A DNA stretch of 47,714 bases, taken from IMG/VR virus record IMGVR_UViG_2541047681_000007. One strand, given 5' to 3'. The notes beneath the pieces were generated by a model. That model was not told where the DNA came from and made no database searches. It worked only from the letters and a program-made list of their open reading frames with translations. Positions 29,586 through 30,400 of the stretch are shown piece by piece. The position numbers and the translations under genes are program-made. How positions within the stretch are numbered: the stretch's first letter is position 1; each line of letters starts with the position of its first letter. The stretch comes from a virus. Lineage: Duplodnaviria > Heunggongvirae > Uroviricota > Caudoviricetes.

Positions 29586-29759
29586 ATTTCCTCCGGAGAG
29601 CTTTAAACATGCATCGTGCGAACAACTTTAAGAAAACGCGTTCGATGTCGAACAAAAACCGCTCAATTCGACATACAAAAAACAAATAACCATTAACAAT
29701 CAATAAGATGCAAAGATGATGGTGGCCGATAAAAATGCAAAAACTAGCCTTTTTCCGCG

Positions 29760-29771
29760 ACGCTCCCGCCC
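29760..29771 (-). other. Putative cosN cohesive end site
   Basis: minus-strand ACGGGGCGGGAGCGTCGCGG aligns with lambda cos ACGGGGCGGCGACCTCGCGG (recalled from memory), identical flanks and 8/12 identity in the 12-mer. Confidence 0.45.
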
Positions 29772-30400
29772 CGTGGCAGGCCACCCCACCGGGAGGACCC
29801 GTCAGCCTGACAGCTCTGACGAACGTCTGATACAACGCCTTGCATGAATGGCATCGGGATAATCCAGAAAGGCATAGCATCGTGCCCACAAGAATCTGTG
29901 TAAGTGTCCTGTTTCTTCCACCCCCGCACAGGACTGGCGAGCATGAGAGACAAACCCGCGAACCATAAACGCGGTAAAAACCCGGTGTGCATCGTTTTTG
30001 ATTATTCCCGCACACTCGCGCAGAAGGAGTTCCCCGTCGGGCTACGGTCTCTGTTAATACGGGAATACGGCGACGATACAGCGCATGATGTGTCAGGCTT
30101 GAATACCTTTATCCGTTAAAAGGGATATCAGTTAAGCTATCCCGTGTAGGGTATAAGCCATTATCAAAGCCACTCTGTAGGGAGTGGCTTTTGTAATGGC
30201 AATAAAAAGCCCCGCGAATGCGAGGCTAAATCCTGGTATTTGTAATGACTGGCTCTTATCTCAACGCAGCCCCTTACCGCGCGCAAGATGCTCAATATCA
30301 AGCATCAGCAATGAGATGTTTAATCTGGATTCACGCCAGAAGTGATCACCATCCTGTCTACAGAGCCAGATGTGAAGGATGATGAGTAAAATTATCGCTA

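Follow-up and report, generated by a model that had tools for sequence, protein, structure and literature searches.

The question raised by the virus record IMGVR_UViG_2541047681_000007, a stretch of 47,714 nucleotides that was analysed at its full length and is called the window below, is whether a short segment ahead of its terminase genes is a true cohesive-end site (cos) of the phage lambda type or a sequence that merely looks like one. A sequence-only reading had placed a cos-like site with a variant cohesive end on the minus strand at 29740–29790. The present analysis indicates, with a probability of about 0.9, that the minus strand of positions 29608–29800 constitutes the complete cos of a lambdoid prophage whose head module is of the Gifsy/Fels-1/mEp460 kind. 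The anatomy, conservation and position of the site, the protein families and the ends of related records were computed here; the exact nicks and the binding of integration host factor (IHF) and of terminase are predictions.

Anatomy and position of the site

The core of the site is the 20-mer ACGGGGCGGGAGCGTCGCGG, which occurs once in the window, at 29755–29774 of the minus strand, and in none of 100 dinucleotide shuffles, even with three mismatches permitted. With slashes marking the limits of the predicted cohesive end, the minus-strand context reads ...GACGGGTCCTCCCGGTGGGGTGGCCTGCCACG/GGGCGGGAGCGT/CGCGGAAAAAGGCTAGTTTTTGCATTTTTATCGG..., and the lambda-type arrangement CACG/GGGCGGGAGCGT/CGCGG is present at 29755–29775. 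An ungapped comparison with lambda, one of the checks proposed for the site, showed that the packaging-termination signal cosQ (GGGTCCT), the left half of the cleavage site cosN (CACG/GGGCGG), the CGCGG flank and the A/T-rich spacer all match; the 12-mer GGGCGGGAGCGT differs from its lambda counterpart GGGCGGCGACCT at positions 7, 8, 9 and 11, which are the four differences counted earlier. A search for the lambda 20-mer in the window gave no match at three or fewer mismatches, as expected because the window allele has four differences. The rotational symmetry of cosN extends over 8 of 16 bp in the window versus 10 of 16 in lambda.

The elements around cosN follow the same plan. The cosQ heptamer lies 22 bp to the left of the predicted top-strand nick, compared with 23 bp in lambda, and so falls at the distance of about 20–25 bp upstream of cosN that marks lambda-type sites. 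The 12-mer is followed, as had been noticed, by the A/T-rich stretch AAAAAGGCTAGTTTTTGCATTTTTATCGG; the A+T content over +18 to +50 is 64% in the window and 73% in lambda, in agreement with an I2 spacer of the lambda type (the role of I2 in lambda is taken from PMC4669245 and PMC4856287). The IHF consensus is matched at +62 to +74, and IHF is predicted to bind at this place; the corresponding I1 match in lambda, at +79 to +91, points the same way. The claim of a cos-like site on the minus strand was borne out, with counterparts or candidate counterparts of all the sequence-level features of the lambda type grouped around a motif that is unique in the window, and only the proposed interval needs correction: it takes in cosN and part of the spacer, but misses cosQ and the terminase-binding region cosB (about 29608–29725).

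The position of the site is also that of a lambda-type cos, since it directly precedes the gene of a small terminase with a winged helix-turn-helix and that of a gpA-family large terminase. The 163-aa product of the first open reading frame (ORF) downstream matches PF07278 with 150.3 bits against a cut-off of 35.1 (E = 4.6e-44) and the family phrog_141, annotated as 'terminase small subunit' (E = 2.7e-77), and the fold of its N-terminal part agrees with the structure of a terminase small subunit. The ATG of this gene, at 29585, is +187 counting from the first base of the 12-mer, and that of lambda Nu1 is +191; the distance from the end of the 20-mer to the ATG is 170 bp, so that the earlier figure of about 175 bp was roughly right. 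Further minus-strand ORFs extend toward lower coordinates, some of them longer than 1,000 aa, and, judged by size and order, they are as expected of head and tail genes. A cos of the type used by phage-inducible chromosomal islands (PICIs) was considered as well and rejected, since the site precedes real terminase and head genes.

The resemblance to the lambda cos is not a chance one: the motif is unique in the window and unexpected in shuffled sequences, and the same context is conserved across many genomes. No support was found for coincidence, and its probability can be regarded as negligible.

Table 1. Features of the cos region and of the adjoining terminase genes. Positions refer to the window; values preceded by a plus sign take base 1 of the minus-strand 12-mer as +1; the cosB types are described in the text.
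Feature	Position	Strand	Remarks
cosQ core GGGTCCT (packaging-termination signal)	29794–29800	minus	Identical to the lambda 7-mer
cosN, CG + GGGCGGGAGCGT + CG	29758–29773	minus	Left half GGGCGG and both CG flanks as in lambda
Predicted 12-nt 5' cohesive end GGGCGGGAGCGT	29760–29771	minus	Starts the cdtI and Tritos records; conserved in contigs and genomes
I2-like spacer, A/T-rich, containing runs of A5 and T5	29722–29754	minus	Includes conserved GGCTAGTTTTT at 29739–29749
Candidate R3, tract CCACCATCATC (+47 to +57)	29715–29725	minus	(CAT)n / CAYCAY tract at this place in DUF1441-type cos of many genera
IHF-consensus site, counterpart of lambda I1	29698–29710	minus	Plus strand AATCAATAAGATG, one mismatch to WATCAANNNNTTR
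Candidate R2, inverted, GTATGTCGAATTG	29664–29676	minus	Reads CAATTCGACATAC on the plus strand; 8-bp arm; block gATGTCGAAT conserved across genera
Candidate R1, GTTCGACATCGAACG, with palindrome GTTCGA-CA-TCGAAC	29639–29653	minus	Same repeat as CGTTCGATGTCGAAC; aligns with the tGTTCACCATCAT block of other genera
Box GTTGTTCGCACGATGCATG, just before the ribosome-binding site	29608–29626	minus	Common to cosB types A, B and D
Small terminase gene, 163-aa ORF	29094–29585	minus	Pfam DUF1441 (PF07278), PHROG 141
Large terminase, 5' part, gpA ATPase domain	28215–29094	minus	Pfam GpA_ATPase, E = 3.6e-70; ended by the insertion sequence
6-bp target duplication GTTCAG	25799–25804 and 28215–28220		Flanks the IS21-family element
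IS21-family element, ISEc10-like, istA + istB, 2410 bp	25805–28214	plus	Splits the large terminase gene
Large terminase, 3' part, gpA nuclease domain	24576–25798	minus	Pfam GpA_nuclease, E = 7.8e-86

Distribution of the allele and the predicted cohesive ends

Conservation of the segment in packaging-competent relatives, the absence of which was to refute the site, is clear, as the whole cos is conserved in plaque-forming phages. The phages PhiR40_1, PhiR47_1 and PhiR55_1 (PV340560, PV340566 and PV340571), which form plaques and were used as live phages (bioRxiv 2025.11.03.685801), share with the window the small terminase and the entire cos, including its type of cosB; identity to the window is 97.4% over 341 bp in all three, and the 76-bp core comprising cosQ, cosN and spacer is 100% identical over its full length in PhiR40_1 and PhiR55_1 and over 74 of the 76 bp in PhiR47_1. 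Unlike the window, these phages possess a large terminase gene that is intact and free of an insertion sequence (IS), and another lysis cassette. Phages cdtI (AB285204) and Tritos (OV696610), the latter of which forms plaques and virions (PMC9928086), have the identical 12-mer and the same sequence from cosQ through cosN to about +34 except for scattered substitutions in the spacers, but they differ in cosB beyond +35, where they have a direct repeat of their own (TTTTCACCTG), and in the N-terminal domain of the small terminase (MSNVSGIG...). Gifsy-1 and Fels-1 of Salmonella and mEp460 have the same type of head and terminase module as the window. Lambda shares GGGTCCT, GGGCGG, the CG flanks, the 12-bp stagger, the A/T-rich spacer, the orientation of the IHF-consensus site and the order of a small followed by a gpA-family large terminase gene, and is distinguished by overhang base pairs 7, 8, 9 and 11 and by unrelated R repeat sequences.

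The exact 21-mer of the site was found in more than 120 IMG/VR contigs among the matches listed, and 2039 of the 5426 complete E. coli genomes searched (~38%) contain the 40-bp core, which means that the allele is common and not exotic; the core of the lambda allele is present in 4284 of the 5426. The description of the cohesive end as a variant therefore holds in that it differs from lambda, but not in the sense of an unusual sequence. In lambda-like phages, differences in base pairs 7–12 of the cohesive end are common, N15 differing at 9 and 12 and Gifsy-1 at 8, 9 and 11; changes to the overhang's right half have no measurable effect on cos cleavage, and conservation is high for the CG pairs on either flank and for the 7-bp cosQ (PMC4669245). 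The window allele conforms to this published natural variation: by the published positions it has all three of the lambda differences of Gifsy-1 plus position 7 (G for C). Alleles read directly from the records are GGGCGGCAGCGG in Fels-1, GGGCGGGAGCGG in mEp460, both of which differ from the window allele at position 12, and GGGCGGCGCGCT in mEp213 and Kp4865-4; mEp213 and LLS had been inferred to carry GGGCGGCGCGCT (PMC12315714). As predicted for the window, mEp213/LLS and N15 have lambda-like 12-base ends varying in base pairs 7–12 only, and they differ from it in the right halves; the mEp213-like cosB is also shorter, with the start codon at about +130, and that of N15 lacks an IHF site and contains just one R site (PMC9026076).

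The layout extends well beyond E. coli. A scan of the small-terminase alignment against species-representative genomes gave 73 loci, and the same layout precedes the DUF1441-type gene in Enterobacterales, Pasteurellales, Halomonadaceae and Marinobacter: cosQ (GGGTCCT or AGGTACT), about 22 bp, CACG/GGG.../CGCGG and, beyond it, a stretch rich in A/T. Across those loci the overhang varies in its right half, which reads GAGCGT, TAGCGG, GGGACT, CGGACT, CGGGGT, CGGGCT, CGCGCT, CGAACT, CGAGGT or CGGGTT. The site itself is already known as a common allele in public records; its novelty is nil beyond the value for annotation, and no new biology is implied. Full-text searches with the 12-mer, with its reverse complement and with near variants brought up no searchable paper that gives it in a phage context, but only unrelated ones, mostly on G-quadruplexes. 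A dedicated survey of cosN variants is reportedly that of Vahanian et al. 2017.

From the alignment and the layout of two phage records, staggered nicks are predicted at 29772/29771 on the window minus strand and at 29760/29759 on the window plus strand. The records in question are those of cdtI and Tritos, which were deposited separately; they start with GGGCGGGAGCGTCGCGGAAAAAGGCTAG (GGGCGGGAGCGTCGCGGAAAAAGG) and finish with ...CCTGCCACG (...CCACG), i.e., exactly at the predicted nicks. It is nevertheless conceivable that the cos is real and that its terminase cuts at shifted positions or leaves an overhang of a length other than that of GGGCGGGAGCGT, as the large terminase is just 24% identical to lambda gpA and the spacing of the flanks, possibly with it the length of the overhang, varies within the group. 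Against this stand, in addition to the two records, the CG flanks with a 12-bp spacing exactly that of lambda and the treatment of Gifsy-1, whose head module is of this type, as a phage with 12-base lambda-like ends (PMC4669245, PMC4856287), so that displaced nicks seem improbable and the lambda-like stagger is retained as the prediction.

The variation in spacing was seen in the Stx-phage-type cos of VT1-Sakai (AP000400) and CP-1639 (AJ304858), loci L129 and L130 of the set, where 11 and 10 nt, respectively, separate CACG from CGCGG (GGGCGGGCGGG and GGGCGGGCGG); this could signify a shorter overhang or a decayed site. A different irregularity was observed in bases 1–20 of the record of mEp460_4F5 (locus L003, LR595868), which starts 5 nt leftward of where the nick is predicted and in which 2 nt of cosN are missing (GGGCGGGAGCG--CGG); this looks like an assembly artefact at the cohesive ends.

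cosB and the small-terminase cassette

For the mapping of module boundaries, 99 distinct viral-contig sequences were anchored on cosN. Homology among more than 95 of the viral contigs begins exactly at the cosQ heptamer GGGTCCT, to the left of which at least seven unrelated flanks were found, and runs to about +34, where it divides into four types of cosB: A (that of the window), B (mEp460-like), C (cdtI and Tritos) and D. The spacer is kept in every type up to about +34, and the IHF consensus is found in all four at +62 to +64, in the same orientation and with no or one mismatch. In DNA, types A and B agree at 100% of positions from +1 to +34 and at 54% from +35 to +140; the small terminases of types A, B and D are 65% identical over the N-terminal ~57 residues and 99% identical thereafter (figures for A versus B), and type C has yet another N-terminal domain. 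As judged from these sequences, cosB from +35 onward and the small terminase up to about residue 57 are swapped as one cassette. It is this same cassette, cosB plus DNA-binding domain, that sets the specificity of packaging in lambda, 21 and N15 (PMC4669245, PMC9026076).

It was also observed that the mosaic junctions (window 29794–29800, loci L008–L127) coincide with functional boundaries, namely the edge of cosQ and the cassette from +35 to codon ~57. In the mEp460-like cosB, e.g., at +55 to +84 of loci L019 and L134 (mEp460), the IHF core is located within a palindrome of about 10 bp (ACTGTAATA...TATTACAGT), which is absent from the cosB type of the window.

Both short palindromic repeats that had been pointed out as possible cosB elements, CAATTCGACATAC and CGTTCGATGTCGAAC, are present. 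The MAFFT alignment contains the conserved blocks cosQ, cosN, GGCTAGTTTT, (CAT)n at about +44 to +57, the IHF core TTGAT, gATGTCGAAT and tGTTCACCATCAT, and by this comparison the two repeats appear as the window versions of the last two of these. In lambda, R2 and R1 would plausibly correspond to them, with the tract CCACCATCATC as the candidate for R3; R3 is situated at +50 to +65 in lambda and at +48 to +60 in N15 (PMC9026076). The repeat script recovered R3, R2 and R1 of lambda as a positive control, whereas a search of the window's cosB type for repeated 10-mers with one mismatch allowed revealed no lambda-like triple repeat, yielding only direct repeats of the TTTGCAT type, of doubtful meaning. 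The arm ATGTCGAA (29667–29674, +98) is an exact inverted repeat of TTCGACAT (29645–29652, +120) and the sole exact inverted 8-mer in the window's cosB, which is weak evidence when taken alone because 29 of 1000 shuffles yield such a repeat. The box GTTGTTCGCACGATGCATG may be an extra R-like copy; types A and B are identical at 28 of 30 positions over +141 to +170.

The shortness of this inverted repeat and its location, 55–90 bp ahead of the start codon, are also consistent with a role of the palindromes in the transcriptional or translational control of the terminase operon, or with an RNA or DNA hairpin, the recognition being left to the (CAT)n tract alone, as in N15. This tract, at the position of R3, is the most widely conserved cosB block, and both N15 and PICI elements use a single R3 (PMC9026076). 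However, the gATGTCGAAT and tGTTCACCATCAT blocks are conserved across genera at a fixed distance from cosN, and the repeat blocks vary in step with the small terminase's DNA-binding domain; moreover, the shorter cosB types have CATCAT in direct, inverted (ATGATG) and direct orientation around the IHF site, an order matching the lambda arrangement R3-I1-R2(inverted)-R1. A purely regulatory function of the palindromes is therefore possible but doubtful, and the comparison, through the blocks conserved across genera and the joint exchange with the DNA-binding domain, rather suggests that the repeats are elements of cosB.

The interrupted terminase gene and packaging

Within the large terminase gene sits an IS21-family element that splits it (Table 1); the junction was mapped by alignment with PhiR40_1. 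The split implies that the prophage is unable to cut its own cos. When the element is taken out in silico, the two parts join into an intact 700-aa ORF (24% identity to lambda gpA, E = 7.5e-19), indicating that no visible decay of the gene has followed the insertion; the IS/terminase junction was sought in the complete E. coli genomes and is present in none. The interruption bears on activity in this genome and not on the identity of the cos. Given that the prophage is defective, the cos-like sequence might itself be thought an uncleavable relic of a dead element, but this is very unlikely in view of the restored reading frame and the near-identity of the site to those of the plaque-forming PhiR phages over both the 76-bp core and the 341-bp region.

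Several observations weigh against the identification of the segment as a functional lambda-type cos. BLASTP of the small terminase revealed no match to lambda Nu1, and a profile search with it against the PDB sequences gave nothing significant. The low identity of the large terminase to gpA makes identical nick positions an assumption, the cdtI and Tritos records may owe their starting points to analogy with lambda, and in the literature searched no experiment came up in which the virion DNA ends had been mapped for this allele. In cosB, the IHF site has its single mismatch to the consensus, the 8-bp inverted repeat is of a kind that shuffling produces, and the R3 candidate weakly resembles the R1 and R2 candidates (5 of 9 positions in a hand comparison within the window's cosB type). 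Finally, an intact terminase of its own is not present in cis.

If the complete cos operated by analogy with lambda, the candidate repeats R3 (CCACCATCATC), R2 (ATGTCGAAT, inverted) and R1 (GTTCGACATCGA) of cosB, with the DNA bent by IHF at 29698–29710, would anchor the gpA-family large terminase on cosN. Nicks 12 bp apart would then give the left chromosome end GGGCGGGAGCGT as its 5' overhang, and the DNA would be pumped toward the terminase and head genes, i.e., toward lower window coordinates; packaging would stop at the next cos, which would require cosQ (GGGTCCT), cosN and the A/T-rich spacer.

With an intact cos and a broken terminase gene, cutting is possible only with terminase supplied in trans, and packaging here could start only with a helper phage that has a matching small terminase. 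The defective prophage, its packaging signal being untouched, could thus still be mobilised by a helper. Perhaps the allele, differing at 4 of 12 positions, defines a cohesive-end compatibility group separate from that of the lambda allele, and, with the swappable cassette, co-resident helpers of the same type could package and spread the IS-crippled prophage, in a manner resembling the cos-based hijacking by PICI elements; this suggestion is speculative and rather unlikely to hold.

For annotation, the site would fix the true genome ends and the direction of packaging for a class of lambdoid prophages that is very common in E. coli, and it identifies the 'DUF1441 family protein' of NCBI PGAP as the small terminase. 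It also flags hypothetical ORFs drawn across cos in phage records. In the window, the ORFs 29744–29992 and 29575–30015, both on the minus strand, run across cosQ and cosN, and such ORFs are given as hypothetical proteins in phage records; the 82-aa ORF across cos matches PHROG 17397 (E = 1e-47), a family that may have been built on spurious ORFs overlapping a conserved DNA site.

Two other neighbouring regions drew attention. A 71-aa ORF at 29904–30119 on the plus strand, opposite to the late genes, is flanked by the lysis genes and cos; PHROG gave no match to it, a shorter version of it is annotated as hypothetical in PhiR40_1, and it may be a moron gene or spurious. The DNA methylase region at 31645–32697 on the minus strand comprises two ORFs of 53 aa and 281 aa with a short gap between them; in PhiR40_1, a 351-aa DNA adenine methylase is annotated just upstream of the holin gene, and the methylase gene of the window may carry a frameshift or a stop codon.
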